NCBI GenBank assembly: GCA_019058445.1
Contig: JAHPZA010000010.1
Coordinates: forward strand, 480,001-544,000
Length of the DNA: 64,000 bases
DNA from: Promethearchaeota archaeon
GTDB taxonomy: Archaea; Asgardarchaeota; Lokiarchaeia; Sigyniarchaeales; SOKP01
Direction: 5' to 3'
Program-made: the position numbers and the translations under genes
Part shown: piece by piece, positions 11,604 through 22,659 of the stretch
How positions within the stretch are numbered: the stretch's first letter is position 1
Layout: the number at the start of each line of letters is the position of its first letter
Notes under the pieces: model-generated
Seen by the model: the letters and a program-made list of their open reading frames with translations, nothing else
Database searches by the model: none
What the model was told of the DNA's origin: nothing

Positions 11604-12224
11604 ATGGCACAACAAATTATGGTTCCAGGTGCGTGTGGAGTAGCAATAAAGTGTAAAGATGGAGTTGTTCTTGGAAATGATCGAAGAGCGACTTGGGGGT
11701 ATACTGTTACGAATAAATCTACAAGAAAGGTATTTAAAATAACAGACCACATAGGACTCACAGCATACGGATTAATTGGGGACTTTCAGTTATTAGTTAA
11801 AATTTTAAGAGCTCAAGCGAATCTATATGAATTAGATGCAGGGGAAAGAATTTCCACTAAGAGTATGGGAAAATTGGTTTCTAATTACCTCTACTCCAGA
11901 AAAATGTACCCCTTATATACAAACTTAGTTATCGCTGGAATGGAAATAGATGGTATCCCTTCCCTATATACTTTGGATGCCATAGGTTCTTTAATGCCTG
12001 ATGATTATGGCACTGCCGGAACCGGGATGCTATTATCAATTGGAATTTTAGAAGCGGAATATAAGCCTGATATAACTGTTGCGGAGGGTGAAAAATTGGT
12101 GGAAAAGACAATCAGAAATTCAATAACGAGGGATGCGATGAGCGGAAATGGTATAGACATTTTGACTATTACTAAAGATGGTGCCAAAGAAAAGTATATC
12201 GATATTAACGAATTAGGAGAATAA
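11604..12224 (+). CDS. psmB: Proteasome beta subunit, non-catalytic type
   Basis: DGVVLG.DRRAT, RKVF.I.DHIG, G..GDFQ, RDAMSG; the G-T1-T motif reads G-A-C. Confidence 0.92.
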   Translation: MAQQIMVPGACGVAIKCKDGVVLGNDRRATWGYTVTNKSTRKVFKITDHIGLTAYGLIGDFQLLVKILRAQANLYELDAGERISTKSMGKLVSNYLYSRKMYPLYTNLVIAGMEIDGIPSLYTLDAIGSLMPDDYGTAGTGMLLSIGILEAEYKPDITVAEGEKLVEKTIRNSITRDAMSGNGIDILTITKDGAKEKYIDINELGE

Positions 12225-12283
12225 TTAGGTAATTCACTCTTTTTAATAATTAGGTTTAAAAAATTTCATTTTGATTTGGCTTT

Positions 12284-14371
12284 TTGAATGGTGCTTTTAA
12301 TTTGAGATTAATTAATAACAATTTTAACGATATTGAAGAAATAAACGGATTTTCGAAAGAAGAATTAATTGATATTAAAAGAAAACTAACAAAATTAAAC
12401 TTAGATAAAGCGGATCAAACAGAAATTGAAGGATATCTCTCTGAGAAATTTTCAAGTGAAATAATTGAGTTTTATTCTAATTATCTGAATGAAATAAAAA
12501 CCTTTATTTTTGAAAATCTATTATCGACAACGGATTCTCAAAATAGAATAAATTTTAATCACTTTCCTCTAAAATCTGGAATTAAAAATGAGATTAAAAA
12601 AATATATAATAATTTATTGAATTTAAAGGTAAATGCTCAAAATACGAAGAGATTTTTAAAGAATAGTGCTTTCCTTGATGAGTTGTTAATAACGATCCAA
12701 GATATCATGAAAGAATATCAGGATTTAACTTCTCAATTAAATGTTCCAGAAAATAGAGTTACGGATATTTATGATAATTATGCCTATATCTGGATTGAAA
12801 TTAATAAATTAAAAAATCAATACTTTAAAATCAATAACTTGACAGAAGATTTAACAAATTGGGATGAGTTCCAAGGGTTTTATGAATGTATTAGAAATAA
12901 TATCATCGAATCTACTAAAAAAAAAGAGCGCAAGAAAAAAAATTTCATCATAACTACCCATTTTAATGATATTTATTCATATTTCAGCAAGTTAAAAGGA
13001 GAAAATCCCGATATCTATACAGATTTAATCGCTTTCTTATACAATATAAATCTAATTGAGGAGTTTAAAGAAAAAATAGAGGATCTTGATGAATATGTAA
13101 ATATTCTTGATAGAAAGGAAATTAAAAATAGAATTAAATCTTTAATGAATCCAATAATTAAAAAGTTAATTGAGGATAAAATAAAAGGAACTTTAAACGA
13201 AATTATTGAATTAGATAAAACTTCCAGATTAGGAGATCAGAAAAAAGACATAAACATAAAGAGGGTTTTAGAACAGAAAATTGGTACGTATTTACCTCAA
13301 ATAATTGATTATTATTTAAAAGGATTAGAAAATAAGTATCAAGCTGCTATTAGTGATTTAAAGGGATATGATGAATTTAAAAATGTGGCAAAATTTTATT
13401 CTGAAAAAATAGATATTCTCAATTCTCAAGTTGAGGAAATAGAAAATTATTTTGCTAATTACACTTTAATTTTAAAACCTTATGAGGATATCATAAATAA
13501 ACATAAGAAAACTCTTTCGAATATAACTTCTGAAATTGAAAGAAGGAAAAATGAATATTTATTTTACCTCAAAACTATAAGAAAGGAAAGATTGAGGGAT
13601 AATATAAGAACATTTATTTTTGAGAAAATAACAGAAGTTAATACTTTAATGAGTAAATATCAAGATGAAACTTCACTGATTGTAAGGGAAGAATTTCCTC
13701 AGCTAAAAAAAATGCAAAATATTCTTAGTGAATACAAAGTAAATATTCAAAAAATAAAAGATGAAGTATATCAAAAAATAGATTCTTTTAAAGAAAAAGA
13801 CATTGATATCTATCAAATTATTAAGCAATGGGAGGATAATTTTACACTTAAAAAACAGCAATTAAGTTTTCTCCTGAGTCTGTTAATAAATAAATTGTTT
13901 AAAAGTTTTAAGGATATGATTGAAGAAGAAAAATTGTTATATGAGCACATTACTGATATTACTAATCAAAACGAGAATTATGATAATCTTCCCTTAAATT
14001 TCGCTATATCAAATCTTTTAGTTGACAAATTAACTGAAGATGAATTAGATGAAAGAATTAACGAGATTCACTCAAAAATTGAAAACCTCAATAAAGAAAT
14101 AGAACTTTACAGAGCAGAACTCTCCAATTTAAAAAGAACTTTAGCAAATAAGGTAAAGATCAGAGAGGGAATAACTAGTGATGATATCCAATGCGGTGTC
14201 TGCCGAAAAAAGTTTGATTTTTCGAAAGATAAAATAATAAAATGTCCGTTTTGCGGTGCTGTATTTCATTATTTATGCGTTGCGTCATGGCTCAGTAAAC
14301 ACAACGCTTGCCCTTCATGTCAGAATACTTTTCTTGATCCAAATGCAGGTATTTATTCTGATCAAGAATAA
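12284..14371 (+). CDS. Coiled-coil protein with C-terminal RING finger (C4HC3), putative E3 ligase
   Basis: C-terminal CGVC-x13-CPFC-x4-H-x2-C-x3-W-x6-CPSC preceded by a long helical/coiled-coil region. Confidence 0.85.
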   Translation: MNGAFNLRLINNNFNDIEEINGFSKEELIDIKRKLTKLNLDKADQTEIEGYLSEKFSSEIIEFYSNYLNEIKTFIFENLLSTTDSQNRINFNHFPLKSGIKNEIKKIYNNLLNLKVNAQNTKRFLKNSAFLDELLITIQDIMKEYQDLTSQLNVPENRVTDIYDNYAYIWIEINKLKNQYFKINNLTEDLTNWDEFQGFYECIRNNIIESTKKKERKKKNFIITTHFNDIYSYFSKLKGENPDIYTDLIAFLYNINLIEEFKEKIEDLDEYVNILDRKEIKNRIKSLMNPIIKKLIEDKIKGTLNEIIELDKTSRLGDQKKDINIKRVLEQKIGTYLPQIIDYYLKGLENKYQAAISDLKGYDEFKNVAKFYSEKIDILNSQVEEIENYFANYTLILKPYEDIINKHKKTLSNITSEIERRKNEYLFYLKTIRKERLRDNIRTFIFEKITEVNTLMSKYQDETSLIVREEFPQLKKMQNILSEYKVNIQKIKDEVYQKIDSFKEKDIDIYQIIKQWEDNFTLKKQQLSFLLSLLINKLFKSFKDMIEEEKLLYEHITDITNQNENYDNLPLNFAISNLLVDKLTEDELDERINEIHSKIENLNKEIELYRAELSNLKRTLANKVKIREGITSDDIQCGVCRKKFDFSKDKIIKCPFCGAVFHYLCVASWLSKHNACPSCQNTFLDPNAGIYSDQE

Positions 14372-14397: not shown

Positions 14398-15588
14398 TCA
14401 ATATTTATATTTTGGAGGTGTTTTACTCTTAATATTATTATGAGGAGTTTTACTTTTAATATGATCTTTTTGTATTGCTTTAAATTTTTTTATCTCTGTG
14501 TCCAATCTCTTTTTTTCTTGCTGCAATTGCGCTTTCTCTTGATCTAATTTCTTTCTTTCGCGTTGTATATTCTTTTTTTCATTATTTATATTATTTTTTT
14601 CTTTTTCTATTCGATTTTTTTCACTCTCATTATAAGATTGAATTTTCTCTTTTTCATGTTGTAATCTTCTTAATTCATTTTTTAAACGTTCGATTTTATT
14701 CTCTAAATCTCGTGCCTTATTTTCTAATGAGCCTTTTCTTTTTTCTAATCCCGGGATTTTATTTCGTATATTTTTTACGAGAGCCTCCTCATTTTTTCTA
14801 TCTCTACCCAACGTCTGTTTTTCTCTGTTAATTTCATTTTTCAAGCTTTCTAACTCAATAGTTTTCTTTTTCATATCTTTTAATTTCTTATTGAGATCAT
14901 CGGTTTTTTTCCTAAGATTTTCTCTAGCATCTTTAAGTTTTTTCTTTTCGGCATTAATTAGAGCTTGGCTATTTATTACTTCTTTACGTATACTATCTAA
15001 TTCGTTTTTTAAACGGTTTCTATCATTTGAAAGGTGATCAATTTCAGTTGTTAAATTATCTACTTCTTTCTCTAGTTTAAATTTCTTGTTTTCCAGATCA
15101 TTTCCTCTTTTTTCTAACCCAGGGATTTTAGTTTTTATTTCTGTTAATTGCTTTCCTCTTTTTTGCTTTTCAAAATCCCAATCCTTTTTCTCATTATTAA
15201 TATCATCTCTTACCTTGTTTAACTCATCTCTTTGCTTATTAATTTCATTTATGATATTAGCATATTCCTGTTTCTTTCCTTGAATTTTTTTATTTCCATC
15301 ATTGATTATTTTTTTAATATTATCTAATTCGTTAGCTAATTGATCCTTTTCATAAATTAATTCCTTAATTTCATTTTCTCTTTCCTTTCTTTTTCTTTCT
15401 AAATCTTTAATCGCTTCTTGATATCCTTGTATTTTACTAACTATATTTTCCCATTCCCTACGTTCTTCTTCCAATTTTTGGCGCTCGAACTTAATTTTTT
15501 TGAGCAAAGTTTTATCAGCAGTTAATATTTCTTCTTTCTCAGGAGTTTTTTCTTGGATTTGATACTTAGGAGGTTTGTTATTCTTCAT
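14398..15588 (-). CDS. Long coiled-coil protein with internal duplication
   Basis: K/E-rich heptads; KIPGLEKR...LENK occurs twice; PPKY at both termini. Confidence 0.8.
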   Translation of the reverse strand: MKNNKPPKYQIQEKTPEKEEILTADKTLLKKIKFERQKLEEERREWENIVSKIQGYQEAIKDLERKRKERENEIKELIYEKDQLANELDNIKKIINDGNKKIQGKKQEYANIINEINKQRDELNKVRDDINNEKKDWDFEKQKRGKQLTEIKTKIPGLEKRGNDLENKKFKLEKEVDNLTTEIDHLSNDRNRLKNELDSIRKEVINSQALINAEKKKLKDARENLRKKTDDLNKKLKDMKKKTIELESLKNEINREKQTLGRDRKNEEALVKNIRNKIPGLEKRKGSLENKARDLENKIERLKNELRRLQHEKEKIQSYNESEKNRIEKEKNNINNEKKNIQRERKKLDQEKAQLQQEKKRLDTEIKKFKAIQKDHIKSKTPHNNIKSKTPPKYKY

Positions 15589-15797
15589 TTGTTTTTATTC
15601 CTTAAAGATATATTTATTAATATAAATTCTAATTTATTATATCAAGGTACTCGATATATTTATAAAAGATACAGTCAAAACTAAATAATTATAATAAATG
15701 ACTTTATTTATATAGTCGAGCTCTTATTATTTATATACTAGTATAAATATAAATAGGTATTTTATAGCTAAAATAAAGAAAAAAAAGGTTGATTATT

Positions 15798-16139
15798 ATG
15801 GGTTTTGATGATGAATTTGATGAGGATTTAGGAGAACCTGAGGAAAAGACCCCTATGAAGTCTAAAACTCCATCGACTCCCCCAGCAGGGGGAAAGAAGA
15901 TGAATCTCTACTTTACATCTACAATTGGACCTGGTGAGAAGCGACAGAAATTATTAGTTGATGACGGTAATACCGTCGGTGCTGTTAAACAGACAATTGG
16001 CAATATTTTTGGATTAGATCCAGCAGATTTTCATTTATCTTCGGGAGGAGTTACAATGGATGATAGCTCTCCTTTAAGCTCATATAATGTAAATGATGGC
16101 GATGAAGTACTTTTAATACCAGCAAGTACTGCTGGTTAG
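15798..16139 (+). CDS. Ubiquitin-like protein with acidic/Pro-rich N-terminal extension, C-terminus -STAG
   Basis: Beta-grasp pattern (TVGAVKQTIG..FG.....HL...G..MDD...LSSYNVNDGDEVLLI) ending PASTAG-stop; first gene of the E1-E2-JAMM cluster. ATG 15798 preferred to TTG 15789. Confidence 0.9.
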   Translation: MGFDDEFDEDLGEPEEKTPMKSKTPSTPPAGGKKMNLYFTSTIGPGEKRQKLLVDDGNTVGAVKQTIGNIFGLDPADFHLSSGGVTMDDSSPLSSYNVNDGDEVLLIPASTAG

Positions 16140-16256: not shown

Positions 16257-17489
16257 GTGGAAGATTTGGAAGAGGATTCTAATTTTTTTAGTAAAGAATT
16301 AACACCAGACGAGAGAGATCTGTATGATCGTCAGTTTAGATTGGAAGGATGGGATCAAAAACTAATTAAAAATTCACGAGTATTGATAGCGGGGGTAGGA
16401 GGATTAGGTTGTGAAATTGCTAAGAATTTGGCTATGTTGGGAGTGGGTCATCTTGACTTAGTAGATTTAGATATAATAGAACATTCGAATTTGAATCGAC
16501 AAATCCTCTTTACTGAGGCAAAAATGGGTGAGGCAAAAGCTGTAGTTGCCGCGAGAAAATTAACACAAATTAATCCAAACATTACAATTAAAGGTTATCA
16601 CAGTTCATTAGAAAGGCTCGATCCTGCGATTTATAAAGCAGCTGATGTTATTATCGGAGGTTTAGATTCGATGAATGCGAGACTTAATTTAAATGCTCAG
16701 TGTGTACGATTTAAAAAACCGCTTATCGATGGAGGTGTTGCGGGGTATAATGGACATATCTATACAGTTTACCCTTACGAAAACGCCTGTTATGAATGTG
16801 ATCCGCTTCCAGTTGCAGATATGGATGAAATGGCCGCATGCACTGTAGTGGGTGTCCCTAGAAAACGGGTTCACTGTATTTTTAAGGCAAATATGCTTTT
16901 CAAGGATGAAAATGATAGAGATCCTGATCCAAAAAATATAGAAGATGTAAATTTAATTCAAAATGAAGCAAACAAATTTGCTCAGAAACATAATTTTTTA
17001 CCGCTATTTTCAAAAGCAGATATTATTAAAATCATAGATAGACATGATCCTGGGATAATTACGATAAATTCAATTATATCTGCACTTCAATCGCATGAAA
17101 CCATCAAGGTTTTGCATTGGTTGAAAGGAAATAACGCGTTGGGAGAGCCTATCAAGTCCTATATTATTTTTAATGGAATGACCATGAAATTTTTCCCTAT
17201 TGAAAAGAAAAGAAATTTACAATGTCTCCAATGTGGTGACGAGGTACGGAGGGTAGTAATTGAAATTAATCGCAATACCAGTTGTGAGAAAATTGTAAAT
17301 AAGTTAGAAAAGATGGGATTTAATAAAAATCCGGAAATGGAGCCAACTTTAACAATAATGGACTTCAATAATATAAATATAATAGATACTGATCTTACGC
17401 CTATTGAAAATGATTTAAGAGATTTAGAATTGATAACAGCCGTAGGTTTTGATGGGGGAGAAATTTTTATAACTCTAAAAATCGTATAA
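16257..17489 (+). CDS. Ubiquitin-like activating enzyme E1 (UBA2/UBA3-like)
   Basis: YDRQ, GVGGLG, DLDIIEHSNLNRQ, CYEC and CLQC Zn sites, catalytic ACTVVGVPR...HC, PGIITIN, C-terminal ~80-aa UFD-like domain. Confidence 0.93.
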   Translation: MEDLEEDSNFFSKELTPDERDLYDRQFRLEGWDQKLIKNSRVLIAGVGGLGCEIAKNLAMLGVGHLDLVDLDIIEHSNLNRQILFTEAKMGEAKAVVAARKLTQINPNITIKGYHSSLERLDPAIYKAADVIIGGLDSMNARLNLNAQCVRFKKPLIDGGVAGYNGHIYTVYPYENACYECDPLPVADMDEMAACTVVGVPRKRVHCIFKANMLFKDENDRDPDPKNIEDVNLIQNEANKFAQKHNFLPLFSKADIIKIIDRHDPGIITINSIISALQSHETIKVLHWLKGNNALGEPIKSYIIFNGMTMKFFPIEKKRNLQCLQCGDEVRRVVIEINRNTSCEKIVNKLEKMGFNKNPEMEPTLTIMDFNNINIIDTDLTPIENDLRDLELITAVGFDGGEIFITLKIV

Positions 17490-17591: not shown

Positions 17592-18119
17592 ATGAGTTTA
17601 AGAAGTAGTCGAGTTTCTCAGGATTTTGCTTCGCTTAAAAAGTTACTTAAGGATGGAACCATCGCTCAACTAAAACCTTTTAATCCAAAACAGAAAAGTA
17701 TTGATCATTTAGCTGTCCTGCTTAAAGGTCCTAAGGGGACCGCTTATCAAGGAGGAGTATTTAAACTGGAAATCAAATATCCCCCTACGTATCCCAGACA
17801 TCCACCATTCGTTCGCTTACATACTCCTATTTGGCATCCTAATTTTTGGCCAAAACCTTCTGAGTATCCTGGTCAGCGAAATATTTGTCTAGCGCTCGTA
17901 GATCCGAGTTTAGTAGGGAAAAAAGGAGGTTGGAGCCCATCAAAAACAATTGTCACTGTAATACAAGCAATTACAGCAATGTTTAATACGCGAGGTTTAT
18001 TCATTAATCCTACTGATGTATTTAACAAAAAAGCAGCTCTCGAAATGATGAATGATCGCAAAAATTTTGAGAAAAAGGTAAAGCATTTAGTTAAGAAGTA
18101 TGCTAATCAAAAATGGTGA
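17592..18119 (+). CDS. Ubiquitin-conjugating enzyme E2 (UBC)
   Basis: GPKGTAYQGGVF, YP..PP.V...TPIWHPN, catalytic ICL, WSP. Confidence 0.95.
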   Translation: MSLRSSRVSQDFASLKKLLKDGTIAQLKPFNPKQKSIDHLAVLLKGPKGTAYQGGVFKLEIKYPPTYPRHPPFVRLHTPIWHPNFWPKPSEYPGQRNICLALVDPSLVGKKGGWSPSKTIVTVIQAITAMFNTRGLFINPTDVFNKKAALEMMNDRKNFEKKVKHLVKKYANQKW

Positions 18120-18940
18120 ATAGAAAAATGGAAAATGAAAAATCTGATGAAGATGCCATTAAAGAGGCCATAAAAAAGAGAATTAAAAATAAAATTAAGA
18201 AAGAACTATTGGAAGAAATCTATAATGAATTAAAGTTGGAGGAAGATGAATTAGCCGATGAGATTTCTTCATCACTTAGTAAAAATACAAAGAAAATTCC
18301 TACAGAATTACCCCTTTCCACAGAGATAATAAATGATATTAAAACTGAAGAAGTTGCGCCAAAAGATTTAGAAGATGATAAAACAGTAACTATATCAGTG
18401 AAGGCTATTCTCAAAATTGCCAGCCATGCACTGAAATATGCAAATCCAAATATTTCAAAAGATAAATGGGTTGAAGTCATTGGACTTTTGGCAGGTAAGC
18501 AGTATAATTACGGGCCTAAACTCCATATTGAAGATGCTTACCCTATGGGGCACGGCACTGCTGTTTATGCGGAAATTAAAGATTATAAAAATTTTGTAAG
18601 AGCGTTCAATGATATTAAGAAAAAGAAATTATTTATCTGTGGATGGTATCACTCTCATCCGTCATACGGAACATGGATGAGTGATGAAGATATTGGGACT
18701 CAAGCACGATATCAGAAGTTATGGGATAAAGCAATCGCACTTGTGGTTGATCCTTATCAAATTGATGGGACTTCATTAGGTTTTGATATTTTCAGAGCTA
18801 ATTTAAACACGAAAAAGTGGTTTTCTATACCATTTAGCGTCGAGGGTTCGCTTGATGTAAGATTATTACCTGAAATTTTAAATTTTATGAATCCTATAAT
18901 CGAGGGAAAGGCAGCATATCTCGAATATGATGAAGATTGA
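18113..18940 (+). CDS. JAMM/MPN+ metalloprotease (CSN5/Rpn11-like)
   Basis: EVIGLL.G, GWYHSHP.YG.WMS..D..TQ, ALVVDP; ~90-aa charged N-terminal extension. Confidence 0.94.
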   Translation: MVNRKMENEKSDEDAIKEAIKKRIKNKIKKELLEEIYNELKLEEDELADEISSSLSKNTKKIPTELPLSTEIINDIKTEEVAPKDLEDDKTVTISVKAILKIASHALKYANPNISKDKWVEVIGLLAGKQYNYGPKLHIEDAYPMGHGTAVYAEIKDYKNFVRAFNDIKKKKLFICGWYHSHPSYGTWMSDEDIGTQARYQKLWDKAIALVVDPYQIDGTSLGFDIFRANLNTKKWFSIPFSVEGSLDVRLLPEILNFMNPIIEGKAAYLEYDED

Positions 18941-19084
18941 TTTTAAAGTAGCAACTAGGAATTTGGTGAGCATTTTATCGCGGTTAAAAAACAGAATCTT
19001 ATCATCTTATTAATTTTTTTTGGTATCGGTGTATTTCACGGTGTATTAATTTCAAATTCATTAAATAATTTTTTTTCTTGGTTA

Positions 19085-20155
19085 TTGGTTGGATGTTGGA
19101 TTCTCTTTACAATTAAATTTTTTGAAAAAAGAAAAGAATATAATGAATATAATTCACAAAAAAATACATCATTCTTTCTCTTAGGTCCTTTAAGTGTGGG
19201 CCTATTTTATAACTTATGGGGTTATTTTACAGGATTATGGGGTGAAAATCTTTTCGAAAATACATTACCATTTTTATATATAAGCCTCTGGACTCTTATA
19301 TTTGCTTTTCCATACTTAATATACGGTTTATATACAATTCGAGCATGTTATACAAAATTTCATGTAGTATATCTCATAAAAACTAGATCTCTAAGTGCCC
19401 GCAAATTCGGAACATTTTATACGCTTTTACTTCTATTTGGAATTTTATTTTATATTGTATTTTTCAATATTATTCTGAATTATTTTTATATCATTGTAGA
19501 GCAAGTTTATTTCTATTTTGATATAATGCTCGTGGTAATATTTTTAACCTTAATTTATATATTCATAAGACACGGAATCTTTGGTTCAGCACGCTCTATG
19601 CCTGAGATTTCTCAAGATTATATAAACCGCCGAAGACAGCGCTTAAGAACAATGACCACTACTCCAGTTAGGGCTGCTCCAAGTAGACCTAAAACTACAA
19701 GAACCACATCACGACCAGCTCCAAGTAGACCTAAAACTACAAGAACCACATCACGACCAGCTTCAAATAGACCTAAAACTACAAAGACCGTTTCACGACC
19801 AGCTCCAAGTAAGCCAAAAACTACAAGAACAACAGCTCAAAAACCAAAAGTCGCTGCAAGTGCTGTCTTTGAGAAATATAAACCAAAAGCAGGAATTCTT
19901 TCATTAGAGGACTTTAAGTGTATATTTTGCTTTCAACTTCCTAAACTTCCTGCTGATACTCATCGTGGAATTGTTTTATGTCCAAATTGTAAACACCCAG
20001 CTCATGCGGATGAATTTAAAGAATGGACTCATGATTCTCCTCTCTGTTCTCGGTGTGATGCCCCAATTCCACCAAGTTTTAGGAGAAATCCCGTGATTAT
20101 CTCTGTCAAACAGTATGTTGATGTAATTAACGAGTATAAAAGAAGAAAGACATAG
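19085..20155 (+). CDS. Polytopic membrane protein with Ser/Thr/Arg/Pro repeat linker and C-terminal RING-like finger
   Basis: Several TM helices, (APSRPKTTRTTSRP)x4, then CIFC-x16-CPNC-x4-H-x2-E-x3-W-x6-CSRC. The frame is open upstream to 18959. Confidence 0.8.
   Translation: MVGCWILFTIKFFEKRKEYNEYNSQKNTSFFLLGPLSVGLFYNLWGYFTGLWGENLFENTLPFLYISLWTLIFAFPYLIYGLYTIRACYTKFHVVYLIKTRSLSARKFGTFYTLLLLFGILFYIVFFNIILNYFYIIVEQVYFYFDIMLVVIFLTLIYIFIRHGIFGSARSMPEISQDYINRRRQRLRTMTTTPVRAAPSRPKTTRTTSRPAPSRPKTTRTTSRPASNRPKTTKTVSRPAPSKPKTTRTTAQKPKVAASAVFEKYKPKAGILSLEDFKCIFCFQLPKLPADTHRGIVLCPNCKHPAHADEFKEWTHDSPLCSRCDAPIPPSFRRNPVIISVKQYVDVINEYKRRKT
19676..19834 (+). repeat. 42-bp intragenic tandem repeat, ~3.8 copies
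   Basis: Units start at 19676, 19718, 19760 and 19802 (GCTCCAAGTAGACCTAAAACTACAAGAACCACATCACGACCA); the first two are identical. Confidence 0.95.
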
Positions 20156-20185
20156 TATAACAGTATTTTTTTTTATGTTTTATAA

Positions 20186-20935
20186 TCATTTAAGTCTTAA
20201 TTTATTTAGATTTTTACGGGCTTTCGAATTATTTGGGTCAATTCTTAAGGCTTTTTTATAACAATTGATTGCTTCTTCTAAAAAATTTAATTTTTCCAGT
20301 GCATATCCTTTATTATTCCAAGCCATGGAATTCTCTGGTTCTATTTTTATAGTATTTTCAAAGCATTTCACGGTTTGTTCATATTGACTTAAATCTGCAT
20401 GTAATAGTCCTTTTTCAAATAGAGCATGTGAATTGTCAGGATTAATTTTTAAAGCTTCATTGTAAAAAAAAATCATCGTTTTCTGCCAGTCAGAATCTTC
20501 ATTTGTGCAATCCCACATCAGAACTTCAGCTGGATGTTTATCTTTCCACCATTCAACATAATGCTTACAAGAACAAAATAATTTGATTTCCTTAGCATCT
20601 TTTATCTCTATACCATTTTCAAAGTCAGTATCACAAATAAAGCAAGTTCCATCTGTACCTACTAGAGGCATGATATTATTATGCCAAGGTAACCGATAAT
20701 CCCCTTCAGAATAAATTCCATAAATGTACATAGGTCCTTGAGCGATTCTACACCTTGTGTACCAATTGGCGCAATAAGTATATCCAGAATTTATAATATG
20801 TACGTTTCTTATGGGGCAATAATTTTCAATCCAGGGTTCTTTACGTTCATCTTTATCTAATTTTCGTTTAAAAATGCAGGTTGCACAGCAATCTGAACCA
20901 CCATTTGGCATTGAATTAACCTTCTTGTACTGCAA
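20186..20935 (-). CDS. Cys-rich N-terminal domain plus C-terminal TPR repeats
   Basis: MPNGGSDCCATC start with several Cys pairs; TPR consensus AWNNKG.AL..L...EEAI.CY.KAL.IDP. Confidence 0.82.
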   Translation of the reverse strand: MQYKKVNSMPNGGSDCCATCIFKRKLDKDERKEPWIENYCPIRNVHIINSGYTYCANWYTRCRIAQGPMYIYGIYSEGDYRLPWHNNIMPLVGTDGTCFICDTDFENGIEIKDAKEIKLFCSCKHYVEWWKDKHPAEVLMWDCTNEDSDWQKTMIFFYNEALKINPDNSHALFEKGLLHADLSQYEQTVKCFENTIKIEPENSMAWNNKGYALEKLNFLEEAINCYKKALRIDPNNSKARKNLNKLRLK

Positions 20936-21768: not shown

Positions 21769-22659
21769 ATGTCCGAAGAATCTCTTGATAATGATGATAA
21801 TTCCAAGTCGGAATTCGTATCGAGACTATACAATTGTCCGAAGTGCAGATTGATGCATACAGTAAAGCTCCCTAAAGATATCGCCCAAAATAAACCTGTT
21901 TTTCCTTTTCCATACGTATTTTTACATTCTTCTGAGGAAGGACTTGATGATATCCTTACTGTTCTTTATATTGATGTAGAACTTCATATACGTGCTGTTG
22001 AAGTTATGGAAGTTGACGAAACCAATATTTTTTCTGAAGATCTTACTAAACAAATTACTGAAAAGTTAATGGATAAGATTGTGAGCTTAGAAGAAGAAAA
22101 TTTACAGTTAAAAGACCTAATTCGCAAAATGGAGTTAGTTAAAGTAAGTGGATTAGAGGGAAAGAATCCAAGAGTTATGAGCATTCCGAAATTGGAATAT
22201 GAATCTGAGATAAAGGAAAAACCAATCACTTTGGAGCCTCAAATTCCAAAACTAAAGGAGATAAATGAAAAAAAGCCATTATTTGATTTACAGGAAATAC
22301 CCATGCCTGAGATTGAGTCTAAAGAACCCATGCCTGAGATTGAGTCTAAAGAACCCATACCCGAGATTAGATCTAAACAACCCATCCTAGAGTCTGAAGA
22401 CTTTTTCGATATAATTAAAGTGTATATTACATCTACGGTTGGACCAGGAGAAAAAAAACAGGATTTACGGGTAAAATTAAGTAATAAAGTCATTGATATT
22501 AAAGATACAATCGGAAAGATCTTTGGTTTAACACCCTCAAATTTCCATCTTTCCTCGGGAGGAATTACATTTGATGAACAGCTGCTCCTAAAGGATTATT
22601 ATATTGAAGAAGGAGACGAAATTCTTATTATTCCTTCAAGCACAGCAGGATTTTTTTAA
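21769..22659 (+). CDS. Zn-finger + coiled coil + repeat linker + C-terminal Ubl (ends -STAG-FF)
   Basis: N-terminal CPKC...H..PFPYVFLH; the C-terminal ~80 aa closely matches the Ubl at 15798 (TSTxGPGEK, IFGL.P..FHLSSGG, GDE.L.IP.STAG). Confidence 0.88.
   Translation: MSEESLDNDDNSKSEFVSRLYNCPKCRLMHTVKLPKDIAQNKPVFPFPYVFLHSSEEGLDDILTVLYIDVELHIRAVEVMEVDETNIFSEDLTKQITEKLMDKIVSLEEENLQLKDLIRKMELVKVSGLEGKNPRVMSIPKLEYESEIKEKPITLEPQIPKLKEINEKKPLFDLQEIPMPEIESKEPMPEIESKEPIPEIRSKQPILESEDFFDIIKVYITSTVGPGEKKQDLRVKLSNKVIDIKDTIGKIFGLTPSNFHLSSGGITFDEQLLLKDYYIEEGDEILIIPSSTAGFF
22300..22398 (+). repeat. 27-bp intragenic tandem repeat (PMPEIESKE)
   Basis: CCCATGCCTGAGATTGAGTCTAAAGAA identical at 22300 and 22327; degenerate copies at 22354 and 22381. 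Confidence 0.92.

Follow-up and report, generated by a model that had tools for sequence, protein, structure and literature searches.

The Ubl operon and its terminal gene

The window analysed here is a stretch of 64,000 nucleotides from a Promethearchaeota archaeon (NCBI GenBank assembly GCA_019058445.1, contig JAHPZA010000010.1, positions 480,001 to 544,000 of the forward strand), which is AT-rich (G+C about 30%) and has its closest relatives among metagenome-assembled Promethearchaeota (Lokiarchaeia-type Asgard archaea). Its + strand carries an operon for a ubiquitin-like protein (Ubl), in which the genes for Ubl, E1, E2, a JAB protease and a putative membrane-anchored RING-type E3 follow each other in this order. 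The last of these, here called TM-RING for its transmembrane (TM) helices and its RING-like zinc finger, is the subject of the present analysis. The Ubl (15789..16139, + strand; Pfam ubiquitin, 29.6 bits) has the C-terminal end -STAG, and the E1 (16257..17489, + strand) belongs to the ThiF family (Pfam ThiF, E 1.3e-60). The E2 of the UQ_con family (17592..18119, + strand; Pfam E 1e-24) contains the HPN motif and Cys99, where residues H82, P83, N84 and C99 are invariant in an alignment of 68 sequences, while the JAB/MPN metalloprotease (18113..18940, + strand; Pfam JAB, E 1.2e-13) shows the motif HSHP...S..D in its translation. A run of nine T (20166-20174) lies after the TM-RING stop codon and the next gene is on the opposite strand, in keeping with the original prediction, made from the letters of the window alone, that this is the last gene of the operon.

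TM-RING had been placed at 18959..20155. The open frame and its stop codon (20153-20155) stand, but position 18959 merely marks where the frame opens behind an in-frame TAG and is no start codon, while the open reading frame (ORF) found mechanically starts at TTG 19085 and would remove the first TM helix (TM1). The residues upstream of this TTG are conserved as protein, and the orthologues begin with MVKKK or MIKK opposite positions 18977-18983 of the window. A Shine-Dalgarno-like box (GGTGA; 18965..18969, + strand) is located 7 nucleotides upstream of 18977, and its GGTG is invariant in 6 of 6 aligned upstream regions. As this conserved GGTG is followed in the DNA alignment by TTG in two relatives (L004 and L005) or by an in-frame ATC in the window and three others (L001-L003), TM-RING of the window clade is read as probably starting at AUC (18977), a non-canonical start, and thus as extending over 18977..20155 on the + strand, as suggested by the open frame and the orthologue starts. 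Gene callers start the closest relatives too far in, at an internal Met or Leu (P0002-P0015), and so drop TM1 from them.

The N-terminal part of the protein is a predicted six-helix membrane domain of N-in/C-in orientation, which covers about residues 10-207 of the 398-aa read (18986..19579, + strand). Hydropathy and positive-inside loop charges, with 2/0/3/0/5/0/24 Lys plus Arg residues in the successive loops, and an AlphaFold2 model built on an alignment of 107 sequences, with helices at residues 2-31, 35-64, 71-87, 110-132, 147-167 and 189-207 and a predicted local distance difference test (pLDDT) of 90-98, fit six TM helices with both termini in the cytoplasm and a finger that faces the cytoplasm. 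Multiple TM segments had also been proposed before. Within the class, this domain keeps polar motifs such as EYNSPxNTxFF and GENL, whereas in the wider family (34 sequences, down to 18% identity) it diverges nearly fully and retains only an invariant Phe73 and a nearly invariant Pro118.

The membrane domain has no credible match among solved folds as searched by VIA-align with the whole model, where the best hits (Z 9.4) are generic helical bundles, and Foldseek with the whole TM-RING model gives matches to the finger and none to the membrane domain. A search of the protein atlas with the membrane domain is blank, and a search with a relative (P0100) returns its own cluster alone, together with leads below 0.9 to bacterial Prok-RING clusters. 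The ER RING-H2 ligases of the Hrd1/gp78 type likewise have a multi-pass membrane domain at the N-terminus and a RING in the cytosol behind it, and for both these enzymes of eukaryotic endoplasmic-reticulum-associated degradation (ERAD) and TM-RING we infer ubiquitylation at the membrane. In contrast, the membrane domains are without detectable kinship, as a chain of an HRD1 complex (9uav_B) appears at rank 28 at the level of noise (Z 6.5, root-mean-square deviation 5.9) amid unrelated helical bundles, and the finger of TM-RING is not of the C3H2C3 type. Features that would recruit derlin, Sel1 or Cdc48 were not noticed either, no search aimed at them having been made. The term ERAD-like, which had been applied to this protein, thus describes an analogy of layout and no kinship.

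Membrane domain and finger are connected by a disordered, basic linker rich in Thr, Arg, Ser and Pro (residues 212-302; 19592..19864, + strand), whose pLDDT is below 50 over residues 247-298. Within it lies a 42-bp tandem repeat of 3.8 copies (19676..19834, + strand; Tandem Repeats Finder score 241, 84% matches), which encodes the 14-aa unit APSRPKTTRTTSRP and bears out the basic repeat tether described before. Among close relatives of 342, 356 and 370 aa, the differences in length are whole 14-residue units, and across the family the linker is 70-108 aa long with a net charge of +11 to +27. Its composition, taken from window positions 19592-19864 and from the corresponding part of 107 homologues, indicates that the charge comes from Arg and not from Lys, with a K/(K+R) ratio of 0.23 as against 0.56 for the rest of the protein and 0.70 for the long ORFs of the window. 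Arg is thus used over Lys in the linker despite the AT-rich genome, and one way to read this bias is that a ligase avoids lysine in its own tether.

The finger and its glutamate

The finger core (Cys321-Cys366; 19919..20056, + strand), as delimited from the translation, the profiles and the models, has the pattern C-x2-C-x16-C-x2-C-x4-H-x2-E-x10-C-x2-C. The translated region is FKCIFCFQLPKLPADTHRGIVLCPNCKHPAHADEFKEWTHDSPLCSRC, with the codon of Cys321 at 19919-19921, and contains the motif CxxC-x16-CxxC-x4-H-x2-E-x3-W-x6-CxxC exactly as first described. Of the eight metal-ligand positions, which in RING domains follow the order C-x2-C / C-x(1-2)-C/H / H-x2-C/H / C-x2-C, seven are Cys or His and are invariant, while position 6 is a glutamate, Glu352 (codon GAA, 20012..20014, + strand). 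Both this residue and Trp356 (20024..20026, + strand), which is located four residues past ligand 6, stand out by their conservation and by their place in the predicted E2 interface, as finger residues 50 and 54, respectively. A C-terminal helix (residues 383-397; 20105..20152, + strand) is predicted by AlphaFold2 beside the finger, and the finger is best matched in structure by RING or U-box domains that have flanking helices.

A total of 236 homologues of TM-RING are found at E<=1e-3, and the Cys, His, Glu and Trp positions of the finger are invariant in each of four alignments (34/34, 78/78, 107/107 and 34/34 sequences). Down to 18% identity (34 sequences), the invariants of the finger are the six cysteines, His349, Glu352, Pro347 and Trp356. 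For the count at ligand position 6, 237 proteins were considered, 228 of which contain the core motif, with 233 cores between them; the remaining nine comprise fragments and weak, unrelated matches. At this position 214 cores have Glu and 16 have His, with Cys, Asp and Ala found once each, so that a residue capable of binding zinc is present in 232 of the 233, and the 18 cores with His, Cys or Asp are all in 14 short soluble proteins. One soluble protein (P0221; 452 aa) contains three fingers of this type, which differ in having Glu, Cys or Asp as ligand 6. The Trp at ligand 6 +4 is kept in 231 of the 233 cores, Ile322 is invariant, and the hydrophobic residue before ligand 2 is Phe323 in at least 90% of the sequences. 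Two other candidate ligands were considered and rejected: Asp351 varies in distant members (HELEF, HISEW, HKSEF), and the first His of CKHPAH, which would give a C-x-H-x2-H arrangement as in RING-H2, is either His or Tyr across the family.

Judged from these alignments, Glu at ligand position 6 is a hallmark fixed in the TM-RING family, and the conserved residues fit a first zinc site of the Cys2-His-Glu type. The glutamate of the window is hence no one-off degeneration. The earlier wording of a Cys-to-Glu swap goes further than the data, as the direction of change is not established and, among the 18 cores of the closest soluble relatives, 16 carry His.

These nearest finger relatives are soluble Asgard zf-RING_2 proteins (P0220-P0236), which contain C-x2-C...CPxC-x4-H-x2-H-x3-W...CPxC and share with TM-RING the spacing and the Trp. 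In both groups the CPxC knuckle provides ligands 3 and 4. The soluble proteins differ in ligand 6, which is His (16), Cys (1) or Asp (1), and in being without the six-helix domain; many of them carry a coiled coil and, at the N-terminus, a zinc ribbon. The window itself encodes one such domain, with H-x2-C, at the C-terminus of a coiled-coil protein (12284..14371, + strand; Pfam zf-RING_2, 32.6 bits), which serves here as a comparison domain and is no fixed partner of TM-RING. A profile of 78 finger sequences aligns with it in hhalign at a probability of 90.4 (E 1.4e-6), where all eight ligand positions and the Trp match, Glu is opposite Cys, and the sole gap is one of three residues in loop 1. 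The alignment of the two fingers position by position, with the Trp kept, was thus well founded, while BLASTP of the single finger against the same zf-RING_2 sequence gives nothing significant (E 0.42).

Searched against 1.84 billion representative proteins, the finger profile has just 120 matches at E<=1e-3. The strong ones are likewise built of membrane domain, linker and finger, while the weak ones include short soluble proteins, of which 14 of 14 scanned match zf-RING_2, seven of them above the gathering threshold. The AlphaFold2 model of the finger (pLDDT 81.7) gives RING and U-box domains as the top Foldseek rows, led by 3lrq (E 4e-3, probability 1.00). VIA-align, which is independent of Foldseek, lists RING or U-box domains in 50 of its 50 top rows, and its best matches include RINGs that dimerise via flanking helices (Ring1b/Bmi1, TRIM, Rad18 and CHIP). 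PHD entries are missing both from the rows listed by Foldseek and from the top 50 of VIA-align. The finger is thus predicted, on the strength of these models, to adopt the cross-brace of RING and U-box domains, which agrees with the earlier choice of a RING-like over a PHD-like fold. Below threshold, the Pfam models reached by the 78 fingers are zf-RING_16 (35/78), Prok-RING_1 (25/78), zf_UBZ (61/78) and PHD (4/78).

The finger (window 19865-20152) also weakly resembles the C-terminal zinc fingers of IFT144 and IFT121 and the RINGs of GATOR2, which are scaffolds of the protocoatomer type. Foldseek gives 8bbg at a probability of 0.97 and has 9lvj among its matches, and Pfam Zf_2nd_IFT121 is reached below threshold by 15 of the 78 fingers.

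An acidic residue at a ligand position of an otherwise complete RING is known from other proteins, such as Rbx1, in which the last zinc ligand is Asp. Asp at ligand 5 or 6 likewise defines the RING-D type of plants (PMC5240574). TM-RING differs from both in having Glu, with a putative role in metal binding, and in that this residue is fixed across a deeply diverged family and not sporadic.

The original prediction had compared the protein with the RING-CH ligases of the MARCH/Doa10 group, in which the finger is N-terminal. In TM-RING it is C-terminal. Pfam RINGv is absent among the matches at E<=0.1 of both the whole TM-RING protein and the 78 finger domains, and the membrane domain is unmatched, as described above. 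The likeness consists in a membrane protein with a finger of the C4-H-x2-X type and in the Trp at ligand 6 +4, which marks RING-H2 and RING-v (PMC5240574). With ml denoting a metal ligand, RING-v has the spacing ml3-x1-ml4 and ml4-x7-ml5 (PMC5240574), as against x2 and x4 in TM-RING, and kinship with MARCH/Doa10 was therefore not borne out. In the tables of the same article, ml3-x2-ml4-x4-ml5 is PHD-like or RING-C2-like, and the spacing of the TM-RING finger falls within the PHD range (ml3-x2-4-ml4, ml4-x4-5-ml5; PMC5240574), but its ligand 6 is Glu and not Cys.

Linkage to the E2 and JAB genes

For the survey of loci, one genome per species was scanned, 135 genomes were found to contain a relative, and the best 80 loci were analysed. 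Upstream of the finger gene, in the same order and on the same strand, JAB is present in 78 of the 80 loci, where it lies directly upstream, E2 in 74, E1 in 67 and Ubl in 63. All missing upstream genes are accounted for by contig ends, except in one locus (L046; JBHLMB010000018.1, 4309-6820), which is a second copy in one genome and consists of only E2, JAB and the finger gene, with unrelated genes upstream. Since this copy keeps just those three genes, E2, JAB and TM-RING seem to be the most tightly bound set of genes in the operon. The order Ubl-E1-E2-JAB-finger is also kept in eight of eight distant genomes from other families or classes, some of whose finger proteins are only about 25% identical.

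In the phylum, 219 of 400 genomes contain a match to the finger profile (E<=1e-5), and in the window's own family 115 of 134 do; the weakest of the 219 matches are probably soluble RINGs. TM-RING is a fixed member of the Asgard Ubl operon, linked strictly to E2 and JAB across several classes. By comparison, the gene for the coiled-coil zf-RING_2 protein is near 8 of the 80 loci, all in the closest clade, and is absent from the eight distant loci with the five-gene operon; a proteasome beta subunit is encoded near 7 of the 80.

A further locus (L083; G000 contig 6: 366000-380000; 8193-9302) encodes a second Ubl of 120 aa with the end -STAGYE, directly followed by a TM-RING paralogue of 222 aa. 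This same-genome paralogue has a basic linker rich in Ser, Thr and Arg and a Glu-bearing finger, and is without the membrane domain. Upstream of the pair, on the other strand, are genes for a membrane protein with a Ubl-like end, a Rab-like GTPase and an FtsZ/tubulin-like protein. Another contig (L056; DATKTW010000176.1) is filed as bacterial, under Nanopelagicaceae, and contains a complete Asgard Ubl-E1-E2-JAB-TM-RING operon; its bacterial label is probably a binning error.

Several other genes lie around the operon in the window. Just upstream (11604-14371) are the genes for a proteasome beta subunit and for the 695-aa coiled-coil protein with the zf-RING_2 domain. Between these and the operon, divergent and just upstream of the Ubl gene (14398-15588, - strand), is the gene for a Lys/Glu-rich coiled-coil protein of 396 aa, which may belong to the system, a relative of it being present upstream in 53 of the 80 loci. 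Downstream, a TPR protein whose N-terminal half is rich in Cys is encoded at 20186-20935 (- strand), and a 296-aa protein with a second Ubl domain at its C-terminus at 21769-22659 (+ strand).

A candidate membrane-anchored E3 and its alternatives

The complex of E2 and finger was predicted from the 68-sequence E2 alignment, an alignment of 78 finger sequences and two zinc ions. It has an ipSAE of 0.72 (0.71-0.73 between runs) as against 0.01 for the best control, a partner pLDDT of 92 and contacts that are 100% alike between runs. On the E2 side, the interface comprises residues 3, 6-7 and 10 of helix 1, Pro68 of loop 4, residues 108-112, and Ser115-Lys118 of loop 7; on the side of the finger, it comprises finger residues 20-24, Glu50, Trp54, 57-58, 60, 62-63 and 65. 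The finger is thus predicted, in these models, to dock on the operon's own E2 at its canonical E3 surface, as had been supposed. The features of an E2-binding surface are present in the finger, namely the hydrophobic residue before ligand 2, the Trp at ligand 6 +4 and the second zinc loop. The predicted surface on the E2 is the one described and tested by mutation for the pair from Caldiarchaeum (PMC5654768).

In Candidatus Caldiarchaeum subterraneum, the soluble RING of the operon, srfp, is a working E3, which needs Ile30, Trp58 and loop 4 of the E2 (PMC5654768). TM-RING resembles srfp in that both RING genes belong to an archaeal operon of the type Ub-E1-E2-(Rpn11/JAB), and in the hydrophobic residue before ligand 2 and the Trp of the central helix, which are essential for the activity of srfp (PMC5654768). 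An extra Cys near ligand 3/4 is a further likeness, srfp having C3/H4 out of register and a 'C3B' cysteine (PMC5654768). In contrast to the small, soluble srfp, TM-RING is a protein of about 390 aa with six predicted TM helices and a basic linker of 70-108 aa, and it differs further in having Glu as ligand 6 and neither Arg nor Lys after the last Cys. The activity of srfp has been demonstrated (PMC5654768), whereas that of TM-RING is only predicted.

Taken together, TM-RING is held with moderate confidence to be a membrane-anchored RING-type E3 of the Ubl operon. The finger would bind two zinc ions, with Cys321, Cys324, His349 and the carboxylate of Glu352 as the putative ligands of site 1 and Cys341, Cys344, Cys363 and Cys366 as those of site 2. 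It would dock the Ubl-charged E2 via Ile322/Phe323, Trp356 and the Ser364-Arg365 loop, contacting helix 1, loop 4 (Pro68) and loop 7 (Ser115-Lys118) of the E2, and would stimulate the transfer of Ubl to lysines of proteins that lie in the membrane or at it. Substrates may be selected by the membrane domain or by its bound neighbours, the long tether would set the reach of the finger, and the JAB protease may reverse or edit the Ubl mark.

Several points weigh against an active ligase of this kind. The ipSAE of the complex passes a mark that 116 of 157 solved complexes and 2 of 215 mismatched pairs attain, a calibration outside which the custom alignments and the riding zinc fall. As RING-E2 complexes are abundant among solved structures, this pass may reflect mere likeness to solved RING-E2 pairs, or the model's memory of them. 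The conservation of Glu352 could also reflect contact with the E2 instead of metal binding, because Glu50 of the finger touches Pro116 of the E2 in the predicted complex. One family member of 418 residues (P0145), the sole one of its kind, has Ala in place of the Glu (HADAF), which may stem from an error in sequencing or be a true loss. There is no basic linchpin after the last Cys, as Cys366 is followed by Asp, Ser or Asn, and the Arg nearest to the linchpin site is Arg365, within the last CxxC. No Pfam RING model exceeds its threshold, be it on the whole protein or on a single one of the 78 finger domains, the search of the finger against PDB sequence profiles is insignificant (best hit IFT144, E 0.29), and no Foldseek row has E<=1e-3. 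The top VIA-align rows have Z 8.0-5.1, and a Z of 8 is only this tool's typical best for unmatched models. The stretch is contained in 13 sequencing runs, none of which is recorded as RNA.

The main rival, to which we give a minor share of our belief, is a pseudo-RING docking module, in which the RING fold may hold E2, Ubl or JAB at the membrane with no activation of transfer. Site 1 might then be zinc-free or half-occupied, with Glu/Asp hydrogen bonds in place of the metal as in a U-box, and the protein would be a receptor or scaffold. U-boxes need no zinc, and the best structural match of the finger, 3lrq, is annotated as a U-box domain. The weak likeness to the non-catalytic RING-like fingers of the IFT-A and GATOR2 scaffolds points the same way, as does the lack of a basic residue past the last Cys, in contrast to the Arg69 required by the Caldiarchaeum E3 (PMC5654768). 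Against such a module stand the seven invariant Cys/His positions and the metal-binding residue at position 6 in all but one core, which would be unexpected for a zinc-free site. The predicted E2 interface is moreover of the catalytic type, and most loci are without another nearby RING gene that could act as the E3. This last count also bears on the heterodimer with the soluble coiled-coil RING (12284-14371) that had been put forward with the original prediction. It would be an obligate pair comparable to BRCA1-BARD1 or Ring1b-Bmi1, and the Glu finger its inactive member. In its favour, the two fingers are homologues that align in register, their genes are less than 8 kb apart in the window, and the structural matches include heterodimeric RING pairs, but an obligate partner would hardly be confined to the closest clade and missing from the distant five-gene loci, and this pairing is regarded as very unlikely.

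The membrane domain might instead be the business end of the protein, as a transporter, sensor or assembly factor, which would make TM-RING a regulated target or adaptor, with the finger for self-association or regulation. The high pLDDT of this domain and its class-level polar motifs would suit such a role, as would the dimerisation of the best finger matches through flanking helices. We nonetheless consider it improbable, since over the wider family the membrane domain diverges almost wholly while the finger is invariant, the same-genome paralogue, again beside a Ubl gene, keeps linker and finger and has no membrane domain, and neither a solved transporter or enzyme nor the atlas gives a match. 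Least probable of all, and scarcely to be expected, is a PHD-type or other non-RING treble-clef finger reading a peptide, lipid or nucleic acid, with anionic lipid or RNA as conceivable ligands of the basic linker. Besides the spacing of ligands 3 to 5 within the PHD range (PMC5240574), the sub-threshold Pfam matches to PHD and zf_UBZ might be cited for it; the spacing of 10 between ligands 6 and 7, the operon with an E2, and structural searches in which PHD domains do not appear among the rows inspected argue the other way.

In the literature on archaeal ubiquitylation that was searched, no description of the membrane RING family was found; the survey of prokaryotic RINGs by Burroughs, Iyer and Aravind (2011) lies outside that search and may bear on priority. 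The available portions of PMC5654768, PMC9192718, 10.1101/2023.07.25.550441, PMC13734099, PMC13328587, PMC11188069 and PMC12962969 hold no mention of a membrane RING. The archaeal E3 is treated there as a small soluble RING (PMC5654768; bioRxiv 10.1101/2023.07.25.550441), and the supplement of PMC5654768 speaks of only small RING proteins as so far identified in archaea. What appears to be new is therefore a predicted RING-type E3 with a membrane domain of a new kind and, as far as alignments and models can tell, a fixed Glu at a ligand position.

A bolder extension, which we put forward as speculative and rather doubtful, is that the core Asgard Ubl operon is membrane-directed at its root. 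[quoted passage not shown]

The RING-fold gene that accompanies E2 and JAB in Lokiarchaeia, and in several further classes of Asgard archaea, encodes a polytopic membrane protein. Its invariant Glu is a natural experiment on the tolerance of a RING zinc site for a carboxylate ligand. If TM-RING is an active ligase, relatives of the eukaryotic ancestor would attach a Ubl tag at the membrane, and the link between ubiquitin and ESCRT proposed for Asgard archaea (PMC9192718) would become directly testable with a defined set of enzymes.

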